From the IMG/VR virus record IMGVR_UViG_3300044212_000089: a DNA stretch of 64,000 bases; one strand, written 5' to 3'. Shown here one piece after another: positions 25,270 through 50,292 of the stretch (position 1 is its first letter; each line of letters opens with the position of its first letter). A program made the translations under genes and the position numbers. This DNA comes from an uncultured virus (IMG/VR IMGVR_UViG_3300044212_000089). Lineage: Duplodnaviria; Heunggongvirae; Uroviricota; Caudoviricetes. The notes beneath the pieces were generated by a model. That model had not been told where the DNA came from, made no database searches, and worked only from the letters and a program-made list of their open reading frames with translations.

Positions 25270-26877
25270 TCAGATGAAAAGGATGCCGCGGCTGTCATAG
25301 ACGGACTCGGCATTGTCGTTTCCCATGCGGATCGCGCGGTCGAGGGCCATGATGGTGGCGATCGCGCCGTCGATCTTCTCCGTGGATTTCTCCTTGTCGG
25401 CCTTGATGTTCCCGGCGGGGTCGGTGCGGATGTAGATGTTGTCCATCATCCAGCGGAGGACCGGATGCCCGCCGTGCGCGATGCGCCTCTCAAGGACGAG
25501 CTTCATGAGCTCCTTGGTGGGCGGGCTCATGTCCTTGAAGCCCTGTCCGAACGGGATGACGGTGAAACCCATGCCTTCGAGGTTCTGCACCATCTGGACG
25601 GCTCCCCACCGGTCGAACGCGATCTCGCGGATGTTGAACCGCTCGTCTAAGCGTTCGATGAACTTCTCGATGTAGCCGTAGTGGATGACGTTCCCCTCCG
25701 TGGTCTGCAGGACGCCCTGTCTCTCCCACAGGTCGTAGGGGACGTGGTCGCGGCGGACCCGGAGGTCGAGCGTGTCTTCGGGCACCCAGAAGTACGGGAG
25801 CACCGCATACCTGTCGTCCTCGTCCTGCGGCGGGAACACGAGGACGAAGGCGGTGATGTCGGTCGTACTGGAAAGGTCGAGCCCGCCGTAGCAGACGCGG
25901 CCCTCGAGGTCGTCCTCGTTCACCGGATAGTCGCAGGCATCCCATTTGTCCATCGGCATCCAGCGGACGGACTGCTTCACCCACTGGTTGAGGCGGAGCT
26001 GCCGGAAGGCGTTCTCCTCGCCGGGGTTCTGCTTCGCGCTCTCGCAGGCTGCCTTGACCTTGTCGATGCCGACCGTGATGCCCAGGCTCGGGTTCGCCTT
26101 CCTCCAGACCTCCGGGTCCGTCCAGTCCTCGGATTCGTCCGCTCCGAAGATGACCGGGTAGAACGTCGGATCGTGCTTCCTGCCGTTCATGATGTCGAGC
26201 GCCTTCTCATGCTGCTCGTAGCAGATGGAGTGCGTGTCGTTCCCGGCGGTGGTGATGAGGAAGAACAACGGCTGCATCCTCGCGTCGCCGGATCCCTTGG
26301 TCATGACGTCGAAGAGCTTGCGGTTCGGCTGCGTGTGCAGCTCGTCGAAGATGACGCCGTGCGTGTTGAACCCGTGCTTGTTCGCGACATCCGCGGACAG
26401 CACCTGGTAGAAGCTGTGCGTCGGCAGGTATTCGAGGCGCTTCTGCGATTCGAGGATCTTCACGCGCTTTGAGAGCGCAGGGCAGAAGCGGACCATGTCG
26501 ACCGCGACGTCGAACACGATCTTGGCCTGGTTCCGGTCGGCGGCGCAGCCGTACACCTCGGCGCGCTCCTCGTTGTCCCCGCAGGTCAGGAGCAGCGCGA
26601 TCGCCGCGGCAAGCTCGCTCTTTCCCTGTTTCTTCGGGATCTCCACGTAGGCGGTGTTGAACTGCCGGTAGCCGTTCTCCTTGATCACGCCGAACAGGTC
26701 GCGGACGATCTGCTCCTGCCAGTCGATGAGCTCGAACGACTTCCCGGCCCACGTGCCCTTGGTGTGGCAGAGTTGCTCGATGAAGAGCACCGCGTAGTCC
26801 GCGAGCGTCTCGTCGTAGCGGGAGGTCGGTTCCATGAACCTCGTCGTCCTGTAATCCTTGAGCTTTCGAATCGCCAA
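25270..26877 (-). CDS. terL: Terminase large subunit
   Basis: PKKQGKS Walker A, IFDELH, GLDLS, KIDG; TTG start after AAGGAGG. Confidence 0.95.
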   Translation of the reverse strand: MAIRKLKDYRTTRFMEPTSRYDETLADYAVLFIEQLCHTKGTWAGKSFELIDWQEQIVRDLFGVIKENGYRQFNTAYVEIPKKQGKSELAAAIALLLTCGDNEERAEVYGCAADRNQAKIVFDVAVDMVRFCPALSKRVKILESQKRLEYLPTHSFYQVLSADVANKHGFNTHGVIFDELHTQPNRKLFDVMTKGSGDARMQPLFFLITTAGNDTHSICYEQHEKALDIMNGRKHDPTFYPVIFGADESEDWTDPEVWRKANPSLGITVGIDKVKAACESAKQNPGEENAFRQLRLNQWVKQSVRWMPMDKWDACDYPVNEDDLEGRVCYGGLDLSSTTDITAFVLVFPPQDEDDRYAVLPYFWVPEDTLDLRVRRDHVPYDLWERQGVLQTTEGNVIHYGYIEKFIERLDERFNIREIAFDRWGAVQMVQNLEGMGFTVIPFGQGFKDMSPPTKELMKLVLERRIAHGGHPVLRWMMDNIYIRTDPAGNIKADKEKSTEKIDGAIATIMALDRAIRMGNDNAESVYDSRGILFI

Positions 26878-26901
26878 TGGGTGTCCGCCTCCTTTTTTGG
26901 C

Positions 26902-26927
26902 AAAAGAAAAGACCGCCTGGGCGGTCT
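26902..26927 (-). terminator. Hairpin/terminator closing the small-gene cluster
   Basis: AGACCGCC-tg-GGCGGTCT plus T-runs on the minus strand. Confidence 0.65.
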
Positions 26928-27002
26928 GCGAAAAATCTATTCGGCACGAGAGCAAGAGCCTTGTCGGCTCTGCTTTCGGGACGTCCGGAATCCGGATGGT
27001 TG

Positions 27003-27230
27003 TTAGTTGTACTGCTTCAGGAGAGCCGCGTAGGCAAGCTGGCTTGCCTCGTCCTCGGGTTCGATGTCCCAGCCGCGGTCGTAGTTCAGGGTGGTCCTGC
27101 CGCCGACCCGGAGCTCCATCTTCGAGATGCGGCCTCCGTCGATCCCGTAATCCTCGGAAGGCTCCGCGTAGTGCTTCATCCAGTATTTCACGCTTGTCCC
27201 GTCGATCAGAAGCGTTCCTTCGTCCCACAT
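27003..27230 (-). CDS. Small conserved phage protein
   Basis: RBS GGAGG; YGIDGGRISK...NYDRGWD. Confidence 0.8.
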   Translation of the reverse strand: MWDEGTLLIDGTSVKYWMKHYAEPSEDYGIDGGRISKMELRVGGRTTLNYDRGWDIEPEDEASQLAYAALLKQYN

Positions 27231-27278
27231 AGTCGTACCCTCCGTTTGCTGTGCTTTTCCCTTTCGGTGTGTACATAT

Positions 27279-29265: not shown

Positions 29266-30525
29266 TCAGCCCATGTCCGGCGGCCCGACCTCCTTCACGA
29301 GATCGGCATACTGGAGCCTCTTGCCATCCCGGACGACGGACACGTTCTGCGGATCGCCGGTGTCCTCCACGTAGCGGCGGAGGATGACCGACGCGTATTT
29401 CGGGTCGAGCTCCATCGTCATGCAGGTGCGGTTCAGCTGCTCGCAGGCCATGAGCGTGGAGCCGGAGCCGCCGAAGGTATCAAGGACGATGGCGTTCTCC
29501 TGCGTGGAGTTCCGGATCGGGTAGCCGAGCAGGTCGAGCGGCTTGCTGGTCGGATGGTCCTTGTTGCGTTTCGGCTTGTCGAAATTCCAGATGGTCGTCT
29601 CGGAGCGTCCCGCGTACCACGGGTGCCTGCCGTTCTGGAGGAATCCGTACAGGACCGGCTCGTGCTGCCACTGGTAGTCGGAGCGGCCGAGCACGAGGCT
29701 GTTCTTCACCCAGATGCACACGCCCGCGAGATGGAATCCCGCGTCGACGAACGCGCGCCGGAAGGTGAGCCCCTCGGTGTCGGCATGGAAGCAGTAGGCG
29801 GCCCCGCCTTTCTCGAGGTGGTCCGCCATATTCTTGAACGCGGAGAGCAGGAAGTTGTAGAATTCCTCGCCCTTGAGGCCGTCGTTCCGGATGGTCAGCC
29901 CGTCCGACGCCTTGAAGGAGACGCCGTACGGCGGGTCGGTCAGGACGAGGTTCGCGCGTTTGCCGTCCATGAGTGTGGTTACATCTTCCGGCTTGGTTGC
30001 GTCGCCGCACATCAGGCGGTGCCTTCCGACCGTCCACACGTCGCCGGGCTCGACGAACGAAGCCTTCTCCAAGGCGGCCGTCAGGTCGAAGACGTCATCC
30101 TCGATGCCGGTGCCGTCGCTTCCGTTCAGGAGCTTCTCGAGCTCCTTGTCGTCAAAGCCGAGGAGCGACAGGTCGAAGGACTGATCCTTGAGGTCGGTCA
30201 GTTCGACGGAGAGCATGTCCTCGTCCCATCCGGCGTTCAGGGCGAGCTGGTTGTCGGCGAGGATGTATGCGCGTTTCTGCGCCTCGGTGAGGTCCTCGGC
30301 GAACACGCAAGGGACGGTCCTGTAGCCTTCCTCGCGGGCGGCCATGATCCTACCGTGGCCGACGAGGATGTTGTAGTCTTGGTCGATGACCGCCGGGGAG
30401 ACGAATCCGAACTCGCGGAGGGATGCACGAAGCTGCGCGATCTGCTCCTTCGAGTGCGTCCGTGCGTTCCTCGCATACGGCACCAGTCTGTCGAGCGGCA
30501 CCTGTTCCAGTCTTTGTGTGTTCAT
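29266..30525 (-). CDS. ParB-like domain fused to N4/N6 DNA methyltransferase
   Basis: YARNARTH...GHGR...ADN; TDPPY; HPTSKP; LDTFGGSGST. Confidence 0.92.
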   Translation of the reverse strand: MNTQRLEQVPLDRLVPYARNARTHSKEQIAQLRASLREFGFVSPAVIDQDYNILVGHGRIMAAREEGYRTVPCVFAEDLTEAQKRAYILADNQLALNAGWDEDMLSVELTDLKDQSFDLSLLGFDDKELEKLLNGSDGTGIEDDVFDLTAALEKASFVEPGDVWTVGRHRLMCGDATKPEDVTTLMDGKRANLVLTDPPYGVSFKASDGLTIRNDGLKGEEFYNFLLSAFKNMADHLEKGGAAYCFHADTEGLTFRRAFVDAGFHLAGVCIWVKNSLVLGRSDYQWQHEPVLYGFLQNGRHPWYAGRSETTIWNFDKPKRNKDHPTSKPLDLLGYPIRNSTQENAIVLDTFGGSGSTLMACEQLNRTCMTMELDPKYASVILRRYVEDTGDPQNVSVVRDGKRLQYADLVKEVGPPDMG

Positions 30526-30528
30526 GTC

Positions 30529-31080
30529 CTACAGTCCCTTTCTTGCGCGGAGCAGCCGTTCCATCACGTCGTCCTGCACGTCCGCGCCGTTGTAATCCGT
30601 CAGGCAGTTCTCCTTCACGACCTGGTAGATCTGGTACCAGAGCTGGTTGGCCTGCTTCATGTAGTTCTGCGACATCGTGACGAACGGGGACGCGATGGGC
30701 TTCCCGCTGGTCGGATGCTTGGAGAGCATCGAGTAGCGGGAGATCGCGTGCTCGCACTGGATCCACCGGGCGACGCTCATCGCATACTGGTCGATGAGCT
30801 GCCGGGAGACGAGCTTCTCGCAGCCGAGGCCCGCGAGCCACTCCCAGGTCTCCTTGAACACGTCCGCCGCGCACAGGTCGATGCCGCTTTGCTGTTTCTC
30901 GAGCATGTAGTCACGCGGGTCCGGCGCTTCGCGCCCCTCCATGTCCGGAGGCTCAGGGAGGTCCATGATCCGAAGCTTCCTGCCGCCGGGGTTCCCCGCG
31001 TCGATTTTTTCCTTGATCGCTTTGCTCGGGCGTCCCTGCCCGAAACGCTGACCGCCTCTGGCAGTTCCGTCCTTCGCCAT
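30529..31080 (-). CDS. terS: Terminase small subunit, P27 family
   Basis: MAKDGT.RGG, GNPGGR, HPTSGKPIASP, DDVMERLL. Confidence 0.85.
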   Translation of the reverse strand: MAKDGTARGGQRFGQGRPSKAIKEKIDAGNPGGRKLRIMDLPEPPDMEGREAPDPRDYMLEKQQSGIDLCAADVFKETWEWLAGLGCEKLVSRQLIDQYAMSVARWIQCEHAISRYSMLSKHPTSGKPIASPFVTMSQNYMKQANQLWYQIYQVVKENCLTDYNGADVQDDVMERLLRARKGL

Positions 31081-31109
31081 GAAATATCCGCTCCTTCGAA
31101 GCCCGCGCG

Positions 31110-31199
31110 GGGCTATTCCTCGTTTGTTTTCGCTTTTTTCGCACGGAAGACCCCGCGCCGTTTTCCGCAGCGCCGCCTCGTAGAGATTTCAACCGCCCC
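31110..31199 (-). other. Putative cos/packaging region
   Basis: Non-coding gap between HNH and terS, where HNH-P27 TerS phages usually have cos; exact cut site not identifiable. Confidence 0.45.
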
Positions 31200-31384
31200 T
31201 GATAGGTACCCCGAAAATTGGACAGCCATTGATTGAAATTCGGTAATGAGGAATCAAAACACCGAACAGAAAAGAGAGTCGGAAATCAAATATTCGGACA
31301 GATATGAAATCCCGCAGCCAATGGCTGGACAGATTATGGTATAATATCCGTGATTGATTTTCGCCCTCGGAAAAGGAGAAAACA

Positions 31385-31909
31385 ATGGCTAAAGACGGTA
31401 CCAATCGCGGCGGAGCCAGACCAGGAGCCGGTCGCAAAAAGAAAACTGGTGAAGGTGTGTACGAACACGTTACCTTCACCGCAGAGCAACTAAAAGAACT
31501 CACGGATTCACCTCATGTATCAAGCGTCTCCAGCAAGTCGGTTTCATACACGAAAGCTTTCAAGACGGTGGCGTGGCAAAGATACTGCGACGGCATCGAC
31601 CCGATACAGATATTCGCAGATGCCGGATTGAACACTGAAACGCTTGGAAGGGCTCGTATTCTCGGCTTTTTCAAACTTCTGCGGGAAGCAAAAGCCAAAG
31701 GGCTTTCGTTTACTGAGGGGAACGAGCCGTATCCAAGCGATGCGGAAAAGGCAGGCTCGTTCCCAACACCACCAAGGAGAGCTAACCGAGGGCGTCCTCC
31801 CGTCATGACCGACACGGAGATAAACAAGCTCGCCACGAAGGTGGCGTATATGTCGCAGGAGCTGGAGTTTCTAAAAAAAATTATCTTAGCGGAGAAGAAG
31901 GAGAAATAG
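31385..31909 (+). CDS. IS3 OrfA with TerS-like N-terminus
   Basis: Ends QELEFLKK over A8 (31873-31880); the -1 frame is open into OrfB. Confidence 0.85.
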   Translation: MAKDGTNRGGARPGAGRKKKTGEGVYEHVTFTAEQLKELTDSPHVSSVSSKSVSYTKAFKTVAWQRYCDGIDPIQIFADAGLNTETLGRARILGFFKLLREAKAKGLSFTEGNEPYPSDAEKAGSFPTPPRRANRGRPPVMTDTEINKLATKVAYMSQELEFLKKIILAEKKEK

Positions 31910-31911
31910 TC

Positions 31912-32970
31912 ATGTACATGAATGGCTCTCCCAAAATTCGCTACGAGATAATCGCTAAGACAATTGAACGGGATGATAACCTGCTGAACATTTCATACCT
32001 GTGCGAACTTGCCGGCGTTTCTCGCTCCGGCTTCTACTACTGGCAAGGTGGAGAACATTACCGTCTGGCGGCAGAAGAACAAGATAGAAAGGATTTTGAG
32101 CTTGTACTTGCCGCATTCCAGTACCGTGGTTATGCAAAAGGAGCGCGAGGCATTCACATGAGGCTTCTGCATCAGGACCCACCCGTGAGAATGAATCCGA
32201 AGAAGATTCGCCGCCTGATGAAGGGATTTCATCTCGTGTGTCCTGTTCGGAAGGTGAATCCGTATCGCTTGCAGGCCAAGAGGCTTCAGGAAAACCGTAT
32301 AGCGCCGAATATACTCAACAGACAGTTTAAGGCATATGGGCCGCGTACAGTGCTGCTGACGGACATTACATATATTCCGCGCTATTCACACCATGAGCCA
32401 AAGGTCAAATATTCCTATGTGTGCGTCATTATGGACGCATTCACAAAAGAGGTGCTCGCCTGCGTGTGCAGTCCATCCTGTGAGACGGATTTTGTTTTGG
32501 ATGCCGTGAACCAACTCATGGAAAAGCATGGTGCAGAACTAAACACGGACGTTCTTATCCATTCGGATCAGGGCTGCCAGTATACAAGCTCAAGGTTTGT
32601 GACCATATTAAGCGATTATGGTTTGAGACAATCCATGTCTCGTCGGGGCAACTGCTGGGATAACGCTCCGCAGGAAAGTCTATTCGGTCATATGAAGGAT
32701 GAAATCCGCACAAACGCCACGGACGGGCACGATAAGATTGAGCGCAAGGTCTTGGAATGGGTCGATTATTACAACAACGAAAGATACCAATGGAGCCTTG
32801 CAAAGCTGTCTCCGGCGGAGTACTACCACTTCGTAACTACGGGCGAATATACGCTGCCGCTTGACAGCAACGGGGGCTCTGCCCCCGAACCCCCGGAGTT
32901 TAACGCTTTTGTTTCCAAGGAAGGCAGAGAAAAAGACGAAGCCGAAGCTCCGCCTTCCCCGCAAACCTGA
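31912..32970 (+). CDS. IS3 OrfB DDE transposase
   Basis: GVSRSGFY, TDITY, HSDQGCQY, SRRGNCWDNAPQES. Confidence 0.95.
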   Translation: MYMNGSPKIRYEIIAKTIERDDNLLNISYLCELAGVSRSGFYYWQGGEHYRLAAEEQDRKDFELVLAAFQYRGYAKGARGIHMRLLHQDPPVRMNPKKIRRLMKGFHLVCPVRKVNPYRLQAKRLQENRIAPNILNRQFKAYGPRTVLLTDITYIPRYSHHEPKVKYSYVCVIMDAFTKEVLACVCSPSCETDFVLDAVNQLMEKHGAELNTDVLIHSDQGCQYTSSRFVTILSDYGLRQSMSRRGNCWDNAPQESLFGHMKDEIRTNATDGHDKIERKVLEWVDYYNNERYQWSLAKLSPAEYYHFVTTGEYTLPLDSNGGSAPEPPEFNAFVSKEGREKDEAEAPPSPQT

Positions 32971-33113
32971 CAGACCGCTCGGGTCGCTCTCCAGCGTTGC
33001 CCTATCCTGTATGTCAGTAAAGCAGGTAAATTATACCACGAGACTACCGCACAAACTCGCTCCGAGATTTCAAACAATCTCACGTTGTCCGAATTATGGG
33101 GAGCACTTCACCC

Positions 33114-33467
33114 CTACCGGTCGCCGCGCTCTTTATGTATCTTCTCGTGACACGACCTGCACAGGCTCATGAGGTTGCTCTCGTCGTTCGTGCCGCCTTC
33201 CGACAGGGGAACAATGTGGTGGACTTCCTCGACCGCAACGTAACGTCCTTGCTTCAGGCACATCTCGCAGAGAGGATGCTTGTGGACGTAGCGTGTGCGG
33301 ATGCGCTGCCAGGAGCGTCCGTATCGTTTGCCGGTCGAGTAGCCGCGCGTGAACTTCTCGTAGTGCTTCTCCATCAGAGCCTTGTGCTCCGGGCAGTACT
33401 GTTCGCCGTCCTCGCACAGGTTCGGGCAGCCCTGATAGCGGCAGGGCCGTTTCGGTTTCATTGGCAT
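33114..33467 (-). CDS. Packaging-associated HNH endonuclease
   Basis: PLCEMC...VHHIVP...NLMSLCRSCH. Confidence 0.92.
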   Translation of the reverse strand: MPMKPKRPCRYQGCPNLCEDGEQYCPEHKALMEKHYEKFTRGYSTGKRYGRSWQRIRTRYVHKHPLCEMCLKQGRYVAVEEVHHIVPLSEGGTNDESNLMSLCRSCHEKIHKERGDR

Positions 33468-33580
33468 AGCGTTTGCCGCCTCCCTTCGGGCATAAGAAAA
33501 GCCCTGCGGGCGCGGTGCTCGCAAGGCTTCGTGGTTCTTCTTATGGTTTTCGCTATTGTAAGGATAACACAGAAGGCGTC

Positions 33581-33616
33581 TGCCATTCTGTGCCAAAGTG
33601 TGCCAAACCGTGCCAA
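33581..33616 (-). repeat. Four TGCCA boxes with exact 10-bp period; likely late-activator site
   Basis: TGCCA at 33581, 33591, 33601 and 33611. Confidence 0.8.
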
Positions 33617-46903: not shown

Positions 46904-48910
46904 ATGGACAATCAGGAGTACAACTCGATAGTCAGCTTTATATGGGGAATCGCAGACGACTGCCTGCGCGACGTCTATGTCCGCGGCAAATACCGTGACG
47001 TTATTCTGCCGATGACGGTCATCCGCCGCCTTGATGCAATGCTGGAAGGGACGAAGGAAGCCGTTCTTACCATGAAGAAGCAGTTGGACACCGCCAAGAT
47101 CGATAACCAGTGGCCTGCGCTCTGCAACACTGCCGGACAGGCGTTCTGCAATGCCTCGCCATTCCTTTTAAAGGATCTGACGAGCCGCTCGAAGAAGCAG
47201 ACACTTGAAGCGGACTTCAAGGCATACCTGGACGGCTTCTCTCCGAACGTTCAGGAGATCCTCGACAAATTCAAGTTCCGCGACCAGATCAAGACGATGG
47301 TAGACGCGGACATTCTTGGCGCGGTCATCGACAAGTTCACATCATCGGATATCAACCTCAGCCCGAATCCTGTTTATAAGGACGCGGAGAAAAAGATCGT
47401 GAAGCTGCCGGGACTCGATAACCACGGCATGGGAACGATCTTCGAGGAGTTAATCCGCCGATTTAACGAAGAAAACAATGAGGAAGCCGGAGAACACTGG
47501 ACACCGAGGGACGTTGTCGAGCTCATGGCTGACCTTGCTTTCTATCCCGTTGAAGACCAGATCAAAGATGCAACATACTCCTGCTATGACGGTGCCTGTG
47601 GCACAGGAGGAATGCTTACGGTTGCTCAGGCGCGACTCCTGACACTCGCGGGCCGTCGCGGAAAGAATGTCTCTATTCACCTGTTTGGTCAGGAGGTCCA
47701 GCCGGAAACGTACGCCATCTGCAAAGCTGACATGCTGCTCAAGGGCGATGGCGAGGAAGCCGAACACATCTTCTATGGCTCAACGCTATCGCTGGATGGG
47801 AATCCGTCGCGGCAGTTCGACTTCATGCTTTCCAATCCACCGTATGGGAAAAGCTGGAAAACAGATGCAGACAAGATGGGTGGCAAGAGTGAAATCCTTG
47901 ACACTCGTTTCAATGCATACCTTCCCGGCGGTGAGGAGCTAAAGATGATCCCGCGCACAAGCGACGGACAGCTTCTCTTCCTGCTTAACAATGTATCCAA
48001 GATGAAAACCGACACAGAACTCGGGAGCCGCATCATCGAAGTACATAACGGCTCATCCCTGTTCACGGGCGATGCAGGAAGCGGTGAAAGCAATGCTCGC
48101 CGGTATATGATCGAGCGTGATCTGGTAGAGGCCATCATCGCATTGCCTGACAACATGTTCTACAACACAGGCATTGGCACATACATTTGGGTGCTTTCCA
48201 ATAAGAAGGAAGAACGCCGCAAAGGCAAGATTCAGCTCATCGACGCGACAAATATGAAGTCCTCGCTGCGCAAGAACATGGGCAATAAGAACTGCGAATT
48301 CACGCCGGAAATCCGTAAGGAAATTGTCCGCATCTTCCTCGACATGGAGGAAAGCGACGTAAGCATGATATTCGATAACAGTGAGTTCGGCTACTGGAAT
48401 GTAACTGTCGAGCGCCCGCTGCGCCTGCGCGTATTCCCGGAACGAGAAATCCCGGAAGATACGTTCAAGAAGCAGTCAGAGCTTGATGCAGTTCGTGAGG
48501 CCATCGCCAAGATTCCTGCGGGAACGCCGCTTGACGATTGGGACGCTTTTGCCAAGGCGACAAAGCTCAAAAAGACGCAGCTCAAGAAGATCCGTCCGTT
48601 TATCACGGAAACTGATCCACATGCAAAAGAGGTTGAAGGCGAATCCGATCCGAACCTCCGCGACTCGGAAAACATTCCGTTCAACTACGATGGTGGGATC
48701 GATGCATTCATCGAAAAGGAAATCAAGCCATATGCACCGGACGCCTACGTGGATGAAAGCAAGACAAAGATCGGCTACGAGATCAGCTTCACGAAGTACT
48801 TCTACAAGCCGGTGCAACTCCGTGATATGAAAGACATCCTTGCCTCGCTTGAGGAGCTCGAAAAGGAGTCTGATGGGGTCATGGATGAGATCGTGGAGGG
48901 ACTGGAGTAA
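46904..48910 (+). CDS. hsdM: Type I RM methyltransferase subunit
   Basis: GEHWTP, YDGACGTGG, SNPPYG. Confidence 0.95.
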   Translation: MDNQEYNSIVSFIWGIADDCLRDVYVRGKYRDVILPMTVIRRLDAMLEGTKEAVLTMKKQLDTAKIDNQWPALCNTAGQAFCNASPFLLKDLTSRSKKQTLEADFKAYLDGFSPNVQEILDKFKFRDQIKTMVDADILGAVIDKFTSSDINLSPNPVYKDAEKKIVKLPGLDNHGMGTIFEELIRRFNEENNEEAGEHWTPRDVVELMADLAFYPVEDQIKDATYSCYDGACGTGGMLTVAQARLLTLAGRRGKNVSIHLFGQEVQPETYAICKADMLLKGDGEEAEHIFYGSTLSLDGNPSRQFDFMLSNPPYGKSWKTDADKMGGKSEILDTRFNAYLPGGEELKMIPRTSDGQLLFLLNNVSKMKTDTELGSRIIEVHNGSSLFTGDAGSGESNARRYMIERDLVEAIIALPDNMFYNTGIGTYIWVLSNKKEERRKGKIQLIDATNMKSSLRKNMGNKNCEFTPEIRKEIVRIFLDMEESDVSMIFDNSEFGYWNVTVERPLRLRVFPEREIPEDTFKKQSELDAVREAIAKIPAGTPLDDWDAFAKATKLKKTQLKKIRPFITETDPHAKEVEGESDPNLRDSENIPFNYDGGIDAFIEKEIKPYAPDAYVDESKTKIGYEISFTKYFYKPVQLRDMKDILASLEELEKESDGVMDEIVEGLE

Positions 48911-50292
48911 TGGTTGAATACGAATCTTATAAGAGTTCGTTCTATGATTGGCTGGGGAAGATTCCTTCTCATTGGGAAGAAAAGTTTTTAGAGCAAACTG
49001 CCTCAGAAAAATGTGACAAGAATATTGGCAATACAGTTACTCAAGTTTTGTCTTTAAGTTATGGAGAAATCAAGAAAAAAGGCGATTTAAACAAAGGACT
49101 GATTGCACGAGATTTGTCGACATATCAAATAATAGCCCCAGGCAATATTGTCATGCGCCTTACAGATTTGCAGAATGATCATAAAAGCCTGCGTACTGGT
49201 CTGGTAAAGGACGACGGAATTATTACGGCGGCGTATTTGTGTCTGGCTCCGAGAATCAGTTCGGAATATCTCCATTATTTGCTCCACGCTTATGATGTAA
49301 AGAAAGTTTTCTACGGTATGGGTGGCGGCGTTCGGCAATCTATAGGTTTTAAGGATATACGGCACATGTATATTCCTGTTCCTCCCCGCGCCGAGCAGGA
49401 TCAGATTGTGCGCTTCCTCGATTGGAAAGTCTCTGAGATCAACAAGCTGATCGGAATCCGCCGGAAGGAGATACAGGAACTGCGGGCCTTGAAATCAGCT
49501 GTCATCAACTCCGCAATTACAAGAGGCATTGATGCAAATGTGGCCATGAAAAGGACAGGCGTTTATTATCTGCCTGAAGTTCCCGCTTCATGGAAAGTAA
49601 CAAAGCTAAAGAGAATATGCAAAGTTGGCGCATCGATTAATGATCTGATAAGGGAGCATTCAGATCAGGACGAGGTGGTTTTCTTGCCTATGGAAAATAT
49701 TTCAGAAGATGGCGAGATCGATTGCTCAATAAAGCAGCCTATTGCCAAAGTAAAAACTGGTTTCTCATCTTTTGCGAAAAATGATGTTGTAGTGGCAAAG
49801 ATCACACCATGCTTTGAGAATGGCAAGGGTGCTTGTCTTGATAAACTTGAATCCGATATTGGGTACGGTACGACAGAACTGTTTAACTTAAGAGCTGGGA
49901 ATGACGTCCTTCCAGAGTATCTGTATTTCATTACAATGACTAAGCTGTTCCGCATTCTCGGAGAAGGTCAAATGACTGGGTCAGCGGGTCAAAAAAGGGT
50001 GCCTGCGGATTTTATCAGGGATTTCACTATAGGCCTGCCGCCCATAGATGAACAGCAGGAAATTGTCGATTACATTCGCTCCGAGAAGGGACGGATTAAC
50101 AGACTTATAGCAACTAAGCATGAACAGCTAAGGGCTCTGACGGAATTTAAGTCTTCTGTTGTATCAGATGCTGTCACCGGAAAAATCGATGTCCGAAATG
50201 TCACTGTTCCTGAGTATGAACACGTAGATGACATCGTTGACGATGATTCGGAGAATAACGAAGAAACAGAGACCGACGGAGAGGAGGCTTGA
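48910..50292 (+). CDS. hsdS: Type I RM specificity subunit
   Basis: Two TRDs; PP..EQ..I conserved helices; AVTGKIDVR. Confidence 0.93.
   Translation: MVEYESYKSSFYDWLGKIPSHWEEKFLEQTASEKCDKNIGNTVTQVLSLSYGEIKKKGDLNKGLIARDLSTYQIIAPGNIVMRLTDLQNDHKSLRTGLVKDDGIITAAYLCLAPRISSEYLHYLLHAYDVKKVFYGMGGGVRQSIGFKDIRHMYIPVPPRAEQDQIVRFLDWKVSEINKLIGIRRKEIQELRALKSAVINSAITRGIDANVAMKRTGVYYLPEVPASWKVTKLKRICKVGASINDLIREHSDQDEVVFLPMENISEDGEIDCSIKQPIAKVKTGFSSFAKNDVVVAKITPCFENGKGACLDKLESDIGYGTTELFNLRAGNDVLPEYLYFITMTKLFRILGEGQMTGSAGQKRVPADFIRDFTIGLPPIDEQQEIVDYIRSEKGRINRLIATKHEQLRALTEFKSSVVSDAVTGKIDVRNVTVPEYEHVDDIVDDDSENNEETETDGEEA

Follow-up and report, generated by a model that had tools for sequence, protein, structure and literature searches.

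An IS3-family insertion sequence with a small-terminase-type arm on OrfA recurs at one conserved box in the packaging region of HK97-like phages

The stretch of DNA analyzed here (the window; 64,000 nucleotides of IMG/VR record IMGVR_UViG_3300044212_000089, an uncultured virus of the Caudoviricetes) contains an insertion sequence (IS) of the IS3 family between the HNH endonuclease gene and the small terminase gene (terS) of an HK97-like prophage. The first protein of the IS, OrfA, begins with a glycine- and arginine-rich arm that resembles the N terminus of the adjacent TerS. Copies of this IS have inserted repeatedly and independently at the same place, a box of about 20 nt that is conserved upstream of terS in phages lacking the IS and is rarely found elsewhere. 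A preliminary description of the window had noted the arm and proposed that the IS captured it from a TerS and may use it to find packaging sites. We consider it probable, though by a modest measure, that this IS3-family lineage is specialized on the one packaging-region box and that the arm helps to dock the transposase there.

The IS is delimited by imperfect inverted repeats of the TG...CA type, starting with TGATAGG and ending with CACTTCA, and CCCC stands on both sides of it (Table 1). In a related genome (G001) the site is empty, and the HNH gene runs directly into a spacer with a single CCCC. This anatomy, together with the paired CCCC in the window and the single CCCC in G001, identifies the element as an IS3-family IS that made a 4-bp target duplication. 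OrfB matched the NCBIfam equivalog NF033516 (transpos_IS3) at 243.1 bits (cut-off, 160) and the Pfam families HTH_21, rve (E = 2.8e-18), rve_2, and rve_3. The orfB frame is open from position 31852, across an A-run in which an A AAA AAA heptamer is the likely −1 frameshift site yielding the fusion protein OrfAB. Features typical of the IS3 family were found, namely a DDE transposase, orfA followed by orfB in the −1 frame, TG...CA repeats, and a duplication in the 3- to 5-bp range with an empty site, and the preliminary assignment to IS3 is thereby borne out by family model, frameshift layout, ends, and duplication. The IS has a G+C content of 0.42 to 0.55, compared with about 0.60 to 0.64 in its flanks. 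It had been placed some 120 bp upstream of terS, at the HNH stop codon; terS starts 119 bp from the left end of the IS, and the right duplication overlaps the stop codon by one base. A DNA search of 101 related genomes returned short, weak matches and no copy of the IS.

Two subterminal direct repeats are possible transposase-binding sites, and their GGACAG-like word is present in both inverted repeats as well. This word does not occur in the target box, and the contacts that bind the IS ends may therefore differ from those that recognize the target. In both inverted repeats an A/T tract adjoins GGGG or CCCC. Targeting through likeness to the inverted repeats was considered and set aside because, by eye, an A/T tract beside a G/C run is all that the box and the repeats have in common, which is too weak a resemblance.

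Viral, genome, and metagenome contigs were searched for copies of the IS with two queries, OrfA and its arm-less part (residues 21 to 174). The IS ends were mapped by aligning the inverted repeats of the window's copy, and loci with the same flanks and the same IS were merged, which left 33 distinct events including that of the window. OrfB always follows OrfA in these copies. In 26 of the 33 events the left flank has the same sequence, about (G)TAGAGATTTTGACCGCCCC, and a CCC(C/T) duplication comes next, often with TACCGG on the right; one locus (L013) has a degenerate version of the box. The preliminary description had suggested that the flanks of homologous copies be tabulated for HNH and terS genes, and both proved to be recurrent neighbors. 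Where the left flank reached 400 bp or more (24 events), 18 had terS there, on the minus strand; its start codon is 108 to 136 bp from the IS in 14 cases and 233 to 809 bp away in the other four. Of the 20 events whose right flank reached 400 bp or more, 14 had an HNH gene on that side, again on the minus strand, at a distance of 89 bp or less in 10, 511 to 572 bp in three, and 1909 bp in one. The orientation was constant, with terS to the left in 18/18 and HNH to the right in 14/14. Two loci (L097 and L098) have the box with neither terS nor HNH nearby.

Over 1500 nt, some copies of the IS are 99.4 to 100% identical, yet the terS genes beside them cannot be aligned or are only 65 to 68% identical. 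Such sets of near-identical copies in differing flanks are L013/L014/L183/L173, L016 versus L198, L018/L019/L097, L178 versus L201, and L194 versus L195. Descent from one old insertion is excluded by these pairings. Conversely, IS subtypes whose OrfA proteins are 65 to 97% identical to that of the window are all found at the same site. The IS is a target-site-specific element, with independent insertions into the same sequence in the same orientation.

Three of the occupied loci (L198, 5124-9145; L195, 38-4158; and L093, 2723-8485) are satellite-like in that they combine a capsid gene with a serine recombinase, a primase (DUF3987, VapE-like, or Pox_D5-like), or both. L195 and L198 have the same HNH-box region as the phages, and a P27-type terS is present in L195 and absent from L198 and L093. 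These loci look like capsid-encoding phage satellites that share the packaging region of the phages and have been hit by the same IS.

The 26 canonical events supplied 23 unique 20-nt left flanks, from which a weight matrix of the target was built. Searched against the 500 nt upstream of terS, the matrix matched 84 of 109 unique IS-free loci, in the same orientation and 93 to 317 nt from the start codon. Only six other matches were found in 1.95 Mb scanned on both strands. Read on the phage strand, the spacer has a G-run, often preceded by a C-run to form a short palindrome, then 4 to 6 nt, and then AAATCTCT(A/G); these make up box 1. About 20 variable nucleotides separate box 1 from a second block, AACGGGCG-GGGG-TCACGCG or GACCGGCG-CCCC-TCTCACGCAC, which is followed by an A-rich stretch. 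The IS enters and duplicates the G-run. On the terS side box 1 remains intact, and the HNH stop codon is kept. The box is conserved across phages whose proteins have fallen to about 45 to 60% identity, and the records that carry it are labeled Clostridia, Oscillospiraceae, Ruminococcus, Selenomonadales, Spirochaetes, Thermovenabulum, and Desulfitobacteriia, among others. Proteobacterial-looking loci also carry the two-box spacer. Because the box lies between HNH and terS, as cos does in HK97-type phages, and because it is conserved, we infer that it is part of the cos packaging signal. A full-text literature search with the box sequence as a word returned no relevant paper.

The two-block spacer (G-run plus CAAATCTCT, then ...TCACGC(A/G)CAGAAAA) was also found upstream of arm-bearing TerS genes of other PHROG families, in GC-rich contigs (L230, L297, L301, L241, and L277). 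Box scores of at least 10 within 300 nt upstream were obtained for 8 of 46 unique arm-bearing ORFs (open reading frames) outside the P27 type, compared with one in the opposite orientation and none downstream (Wilcoxon P = 0.002 and 0.006). The two-block spacer may be a widespread signature of cos regions.

The N terminus of OrfA, MAKDGTNRGGARPGAGRKKK, and that of the neighboring TerS, MAKDGTARGGQRFGQGRPSK, are identical at 14 of 20 residues, exactly as first reported. The same codon is used at 5 of the 14 identical residues, and 32 of 60 nt agree, which upholds the earlier statement that the likeness is not a fresh local duplication. A BLASTP alignment of OrfA with TerS was limited to residues 1 to 21 (14/21 identical, E = 1e-5 in a single comparison), and a profile-profile comparison of the two families aligned 22 columns, the arm alone (probability 96.7%, E = 3.5e-10). 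OrfA had no match to Terminase_4 in Pfam and none in PHROGs. Neither OrfA nor TerS matched an AT_hook family in Pfam at E ≤ 0.01, in a scan in which motifs so short are easily filtered out. The core of an AT-hook is R-G-R-P in a basic context, whereas in the arm a glycine-rich stretch is followed by G-R-K or G-R-P.

The pattern GG-x-R-x-G-x-G-R near the N terminus was used to score the arm in homologs of both proteins. On the OrfA side it was present in 110 of the 120 homologs listed (160 found), the other ten being three one-residue variants and seven N-terminal fragments; 37 of the 120 have a MAKDGT-type start. On the TerS side it was present in 114 of the 120 homologs listed (2230 found), and five of the other six are one-residue variants. 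About 140 of 160 loci fetched with OrfA matched its residues 1 to 20 only, at 85 to 100% identity, and these are TerS-like ORFs of 173 to 187 amino acids (aa). In five TerS-like ORFs the arm is identical to that of OrfA at 20/20 residues, yet the DNA agrees at just 46 to 49 of 60 nt. This indicates that the arm is old and held by selection at the protein level, with no sign of recent DNA transfer. The likeness between OrfA and TerS is beyond chance, but it is a family-wide motif and not a local peculiarity. At the DNA level, the IS resembles deposited phages at one place only: 70 nt, spanning the arm codons and the 11 nt that precede the orfA start, are 78.6% identical to the terS starts of two Ruminococcus phages (H35 and H36).

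The distribution of the arm among phage proteins was assessed with its core, GGARPGAGRK, which was back-translated to a degenerate DNA pattern and searched against viral contigs. At least 117 stretches were found, and 80 loci with 81 occurrences were examined. In 79 of the 81, the core is no more than 22 residues from the closest ATG upstream in a small ORF, the exceptions being L250, where the start is doubtful, and a second copy in L266. After omission of 22 near-duplicates by eye, 59 core-bearing ORFs were run against PHROGs. Matches to terminase small subunit families (phrog_83, 641, 18735, 309, 57/141, and 2538) were obtained for 27; another 12 matched only phrog_15261, a family of unknown function that comatches with TerS families in five other proteins; two matched phrog_38011; and 18, one of them an IS OrfA, matched nothing. 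On the basis of these matches, the core is a hallmark of the N-terminal arm of several small terminase families, at least six in PHROGs, and not of this phage type only.

An exhaustive search of 1.84 billion representatives returned 549 relatives of OrfA. The arm pattern is missing in 123 of the 146 newly listed distant relatives, a few of which are fragments or have variant arms (e.g., P0244, P0255, P0258, and P0274). Most arm-less relatives are 125 to 170 aa long, align from about residue 30 of OrfA to about residue 5 of their own, and begin a few residues before a conserved FT-x-E...NPY motif. The preliminary description had held that IS3 OrfA proteins normally start with a helix-turn-helix (HTH), and this agrees with what the wider relatives show. 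Because these start at the HTH part, the arm and its short linker are a clade-specific N-terminal extension of OrfA. Some relatives depart from the common layout. An IS variant in L360 (2196-3463) has a short OrfA of about 77 aa with the arm MPSGGRRPGAGRKKK and a C-terminal frameshift region, seemingly without HTH_Tnp_2; an IS3-type OrfB (51% identical) comes next, and the locus begins with a fragment of a P27-type TerS. In three proteins of 377 to 490 aa (P0242, P0250, and P0268), three to five stretches match OrfA, as tandem HTH_Tnp_2 repeats in one chain.

A profile of 55 arm-less OrfA proteins, searched against viral contigs, gave 26 loci: 13 already in the census, three new arm-bearing copies (L349 to L351), the arm-bearing variant L360, and nine arm-less loci (L348 and L352 to L359). 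The latter are perhaps eight distinct loci, since L352 and L353 have the same OrfA. None of the nine has a P27-type terS or a packaging-region HNH gene in flanks of up to 4 kb, and a single one, L359, has a weak box match (12.9), on the opposite strand. In 399 scored genomes, 14 arm-less copies were found in nine genomes, with no terS, no HNH, and no box score above 10.5 within 1.5 kb. Five of these copies are in one genome and have unrelated left flanks, one of which resembles the 3′ end of a tRNA gene by eye. The arm and box targeting thus go together in the OrfA family.

What such an arm might do is suggested by HK97. HK97 TerS binds DNA 15 to 29 bp from where cos is cut (PMC11331095). Its N-terminal arm occupies the minor groove alongside a 9-bp A-tract, an arm arginine touches a base, and cutting is stimulated by the HNH protein gp74. 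HK97 and the present locus have the same order, HNH, cos (here the candidate box), and terS, and the present box likewise pairs a G-run with an A-tract. The two TerS proteins have no sequence similarity, and their arm sequences differ. Searched against solved structures by sequence, the window's TerS had no match singly, and the best profile match was an integrase fragment at E = 0.1. Its AF2 model (mean pLDDT, 75; arm region of low confidence) found nothing in Foldseek at E ≤ 0.001.

The explanation that we favor can be laid out as a series of steps. An active IS3-family element, with orfA, a −1 frameshift, orfB, TG...CA repeats, and a 4-bp duplication, takes as its target a box of about 20 nt (G-run, 4 to 6 nt, AAATCTCTAC) that follows HNH and precedes, by about 110 to 130 bp, the P27-type terS of HK97-like phages and satellites. 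It inserts at the G-run in one orientation, antisense to the phage genes, and leaves HNH, box, and terS intact. By analogy with HK97, P27-type terminases would use their glycine- and arginine-rich arm to hold the spacer at its A-tract and G-run, and the same arm on OrfA or OrfAB could bring the transposase there through the minor groove. The HTH_Tnp_2 body and the catalytic part would then set the exact insertion point and the orientation. The site may be a safe harbor for spread on phages and satellites; alternatively, insertion may cripple packaging by uncoupling the cos cut from the TerS site. A bolder version, in which the IS lineage took over the DNA-reading arm of TerS to find the packaging signal and lives as a dedicated parasite that rides virions or disarms prophages, is one that we would advance only tentatively.

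Several observations weigh against the favored explanation, in which the part played by the arm is suggested by correlation. Six of the 33 events (L093, L099, L188/189, L192, L193, and L210) are at other or unresolved sites, with weak end mapping for L093, L099, and L210; L189 lies among IS21-like and toxin-antitoxin genes. The three arm-bearing copies found later include two canonical insertions (L349 and L351) and one, L350, with HNH on the right and no box on the left. The same IS is found beside TerS proteins with different arm variants, and there was no consistent match of arm subtype between an IS and its neighboring TerS (alike in L212; not in L016, L178, or L183). Among arm-bearing ORFs outside the P27 type, 43 of 49 have no box (score 12, 600 nt upstream). 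Since the core is generic, most of these ORFs lack the box, and differing TerS arms stand beside the same IS, the arm alone cannot specify the box. The preliminary interpretation of a TerS-type arm accordingly holds in part: the arm is a genuine small-terminase arm and the IS is enriched between HNH and terS, but an arm common to at least six PHROG families does not by itself specify a site. Capture of the arm from a TerS is one possible origin, beside passage in the opposite direction and convergence. Because the arm-bearing proteins form one clade, moreover, the association of arm and box targeting counts as one evolutionary coincidence and not as 26. In a VIA-align comparison with the TerS model, HK97 TerS (8pop_A) ranked third (Z = 6.4, root mean square deviation 4.4, 109 residues aligned), at the same level as unrelated helical proteins. 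Among 33 GenBank phage records whose TerS is related, no phage of this family with mapped ends was found; most are prophage derived, and none starts at terS. None of these 33 records carries the IS, nor was it found in deposited phages or plasmids, which would fit either nonviable IS-bearing phages or mere rarity.

These points lead to an alternative in which the IS is box specific while the arm has no part in the choice and acts as a generic basic, glycine-rich DNA clamp. The arm would raise nonspecific affinity or help to bind the IS ends, HTH_Tnp_2, another part of OrfAB, or DNA structure would select the site, and the likeness to TerS would reflect a common solution to gripping DNA. Such a clamp is quite possible, if on the whole unlikely, because the core is common to terminases with presumably different sites and because other arm variants occur beside the IS. 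It agrees with the presence of the core at the head of small terminases from six or more PHROG families and of other small phage ORFs, with the many such ORFs that have no box upstream (43/49), with the A/T tract beside GGGG or CCCC in both inverted repeats, and with identical arms that have diverged at synonymous sites and bear no trace of recent transfer. A clamp of this kind fits less well with the 26 of 33 arm-bearing events at the box compared with 0 of 23 arm-less loci, or with the enrichment of box-like sequence upstream of arm-bearing TerS genes of other families, and in HK97 the TerS arm makes a base contact within the recognition site (PMC11331095).

Two further readings appear less probable. 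The arm could mimic the TerS N terminus toward a protein partner such as TerL, the HNH endonuclease, or a DNA-bending protein, so that the transposase is drawn to cos during terminase assembly or packaging is poisoned, as an antiphage or interelement weapon. The arm is indeed the only stretch common to OrfA and TerS, it is conserved across unrelated TerS families, as a partner-binding peptide could be, and the IS inserts between the HNH gene and terS. We nevertheless regard mimicry as improbable, since no partner is known, since in the one solved TerS-DNA complex of this phage type the arm touches DNA and not protein, and since a nucleotide-exact, orientation-strict insertion is more simply explained by DNA reading. 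The last reading is that there is no real targeting and that the pattern stems from one old inherited insertion or from the way in which loci were collected. The loci were found through OrfA similarity in phage-rich collections, and some were the same event twice, until merged. Against this stand the nearly identical IS copies beside unalignable or distantly related terS genes, the divergent OrfA subtypes at the same site, the majority of empty sites (84/109), one of them with a 100% identical HNH flank, and the same picture in genome and metagenome collections that had not been selected for phages, so that we give this reading hardly any weight.

Typical members of the IS3 family, such as IS911, IS2, and IS150, mostly have a loose choice of target. 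The present IS resembles them in the 0/−1 frames of orfA and orfB, the slippery A-run, the rve DDE transposase, the TG...CA ends, and the 4-bp duplication, and it differs in being longer, at 1911 bp, in having an HTH_Tnp_2-type OrfA with a terminase-type arm of about 25 residues, and in using one target in one orientation. Target-specific IS3 members and safe-harbor transposons are already known. IS1397 and ISKpn1 are IS3-family elements that insert into REP/BIME palindromes, repeats of enterobacterial chromosomes. They share with the present IS a strict preference for a short conserved noncoding sequence; their target is a repeated chromosomal sequence, whereas the present IS uses a box that occurs once, in the packaging region of a phage or satellite. 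To our knowledge, the OrfA proteins of IS1397 and ISKpn1 have no terminase-like arm. Tn7, through TnsD and attTn7, inserts beside a conserved sequence in one orientation and breaks no gene. The present IS likewise recognizes a conserved sequence that many hosts must keep and inserts beside it in one orientation, but its transposase family and machinery are other than those of Tn7, its "host" is a phage or satellite, and the recognized element is noncoding. Cos-type phage satellites, e.g., SaPIbov5, carry the cos site of their helper. Loci L195 and L198 are comparable as small elements (recombinase, primase, and capsid gene) with the HNH-box region of the phages; the satellites copy the cos site itself, whereas the IS inserts beside the box and does not carry it. 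Literature searches for an IS targeting phage cos, for IS3 together with cos, and for PF20310 returned nothing relevant. What appears to be new here is a site-specific IS3-family element with a terminase-type arm, specialized on a phage packaging region.

ISs are generally held to be rare in phage genomes and poorly tolerated there (PMC3429520). An IS lineage that homes to a phage packaging box would, if confirmed, be a virus-specialized transposon with a safe harbor, one that guarantees a target in every new phage and possibly a ride in the capsid. If the insertion breaks packaging instead, it would offer a simple route to the domestication of prophages. The system is also a natural experiment on DNA reading by small terminases, in which a 20-residue arm is carried by two unrelated proteins and one of them leaves a nucleotide-precise footprint. 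As a candidate cos signature, the two-box spacer could help to annotate packaging sites and satellites in metagenomes.

Table 1. Features of the IS, its target region, and the surrounding prophage in the window
Feature	Position	Strand	Evidence or remark
IS3-family IS, 1911 bp, antisense to phage genes	31200..33110	+	Ends mapped; empty site in G001
Left inverted repeat, starts TGATAGGTACCCCG	31200..31227	+	Conserved in related copies
Right inverted repeat, ends GGGGAGCACTTCA	33083..33110	+	Conserved in related copies
Left 4-bp target duplication, CCCC	31196..31199	.	
Right 4-bp target duplication, CCCC	33111..33114	.	1-nt overlap with HNH stop codon (33114-33116)
Two subterminal direct repeats, 24 nt, 71% alike	31252..31307	+	GGACAG-like word, present too in both inverted repeats
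TGGTATAAT, extended −10-like sequence upstream of orfA	31337..31345	+	Read by eye from the sequence
orfA, 174 aa: arm (aa 1-20), short linker, HTH_Tnp_2 (aa 30-111)	31385..31909	+	Pfam PF20310, E = 1.1e-14
Terminase-type arm codons, MAKDGTNRGGARPGAGRKKK	31385..31444	+	
Slippery A AAA AAA heptamer, orfA frame	31873..31879	+	Sequence
orfB, 352 aa, IS3-family DDE transposase, −1 frame relative to orfA	31912..32970	+	NCBIfam and Pfam
Target box 1, phage strand GGGG-CGGTTG-AAATCTCTAC	31180..31199	-	Intact on terS side of IS
Second conserved spacer block, GCGCCGTTTTCCGC on + strand	31155..31168	-	Conserved in occupied and empty sites
terS, P27-type small terminase, 183 aa	30529..31080	-	Pfam Terminase_4 PF05119, 28.3 bits (cut-off, 24.7)
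terS arm codons	31021-31080	-	
HNH endonuclease gene, last before packaging region	33114..33596	-	Pfam HNH PF01844, E = 2e-15
ParB_N + N6_N4 DNA methylase gene, between terS and terL	29266..30525	-	Context
terL, same HK97-like prophage	25273..27276	-	Pfam TerL_ATPase and TerL_nuclease; context
Replication module: DUF2800/PD-(D/E)XK nuclease, family A DNA polymerase, DUF3987 primase		-	First in prophage order
SNF2 helicase and DUF1492/sigma-70 region 4 protein		-	Between replication module and HNH

The prophage that holds the IS runs on the minus strand of the window from about 45 kb down to about 8 kb. Relatives of its TerS match phrog_83 (terminase small subunit), and terL, portal, protease, and capsid genes lie downstream of terS; after terL come genes for the portal, a ClpP-type protease, an HK97-type capsid, a connector, the tail, and a holin. 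The HNH gene, including the target duplication (33111-33596), is 100% identical to G001 over 486 nt, whereas on the terS side identity is 90% over 94 nt (31107-31200) and then 73% over 323 nt. This drop in identity from the HNH side to the terS side places a mosaic boundary between the two prophages at or beside the box.

Other genes near the packaging region vary. A ParB_N-N6/N4 methylase gene, unrelated to packaging, lies downstream of terS in the window (before terL), L178, and L183. An S-adenosylmethionine synthetase gene stands beside the methylase gene downstream of terS in L018 (2733-5142) and L019 (1-1684), the latter locus covering only the ParB_N end of the methylase. In the window, type I restriction-modification genes (HsdM-like N6_Mtase and HsdS) are found at 46904-50289, a few kilobases past the replication end of the prophage.

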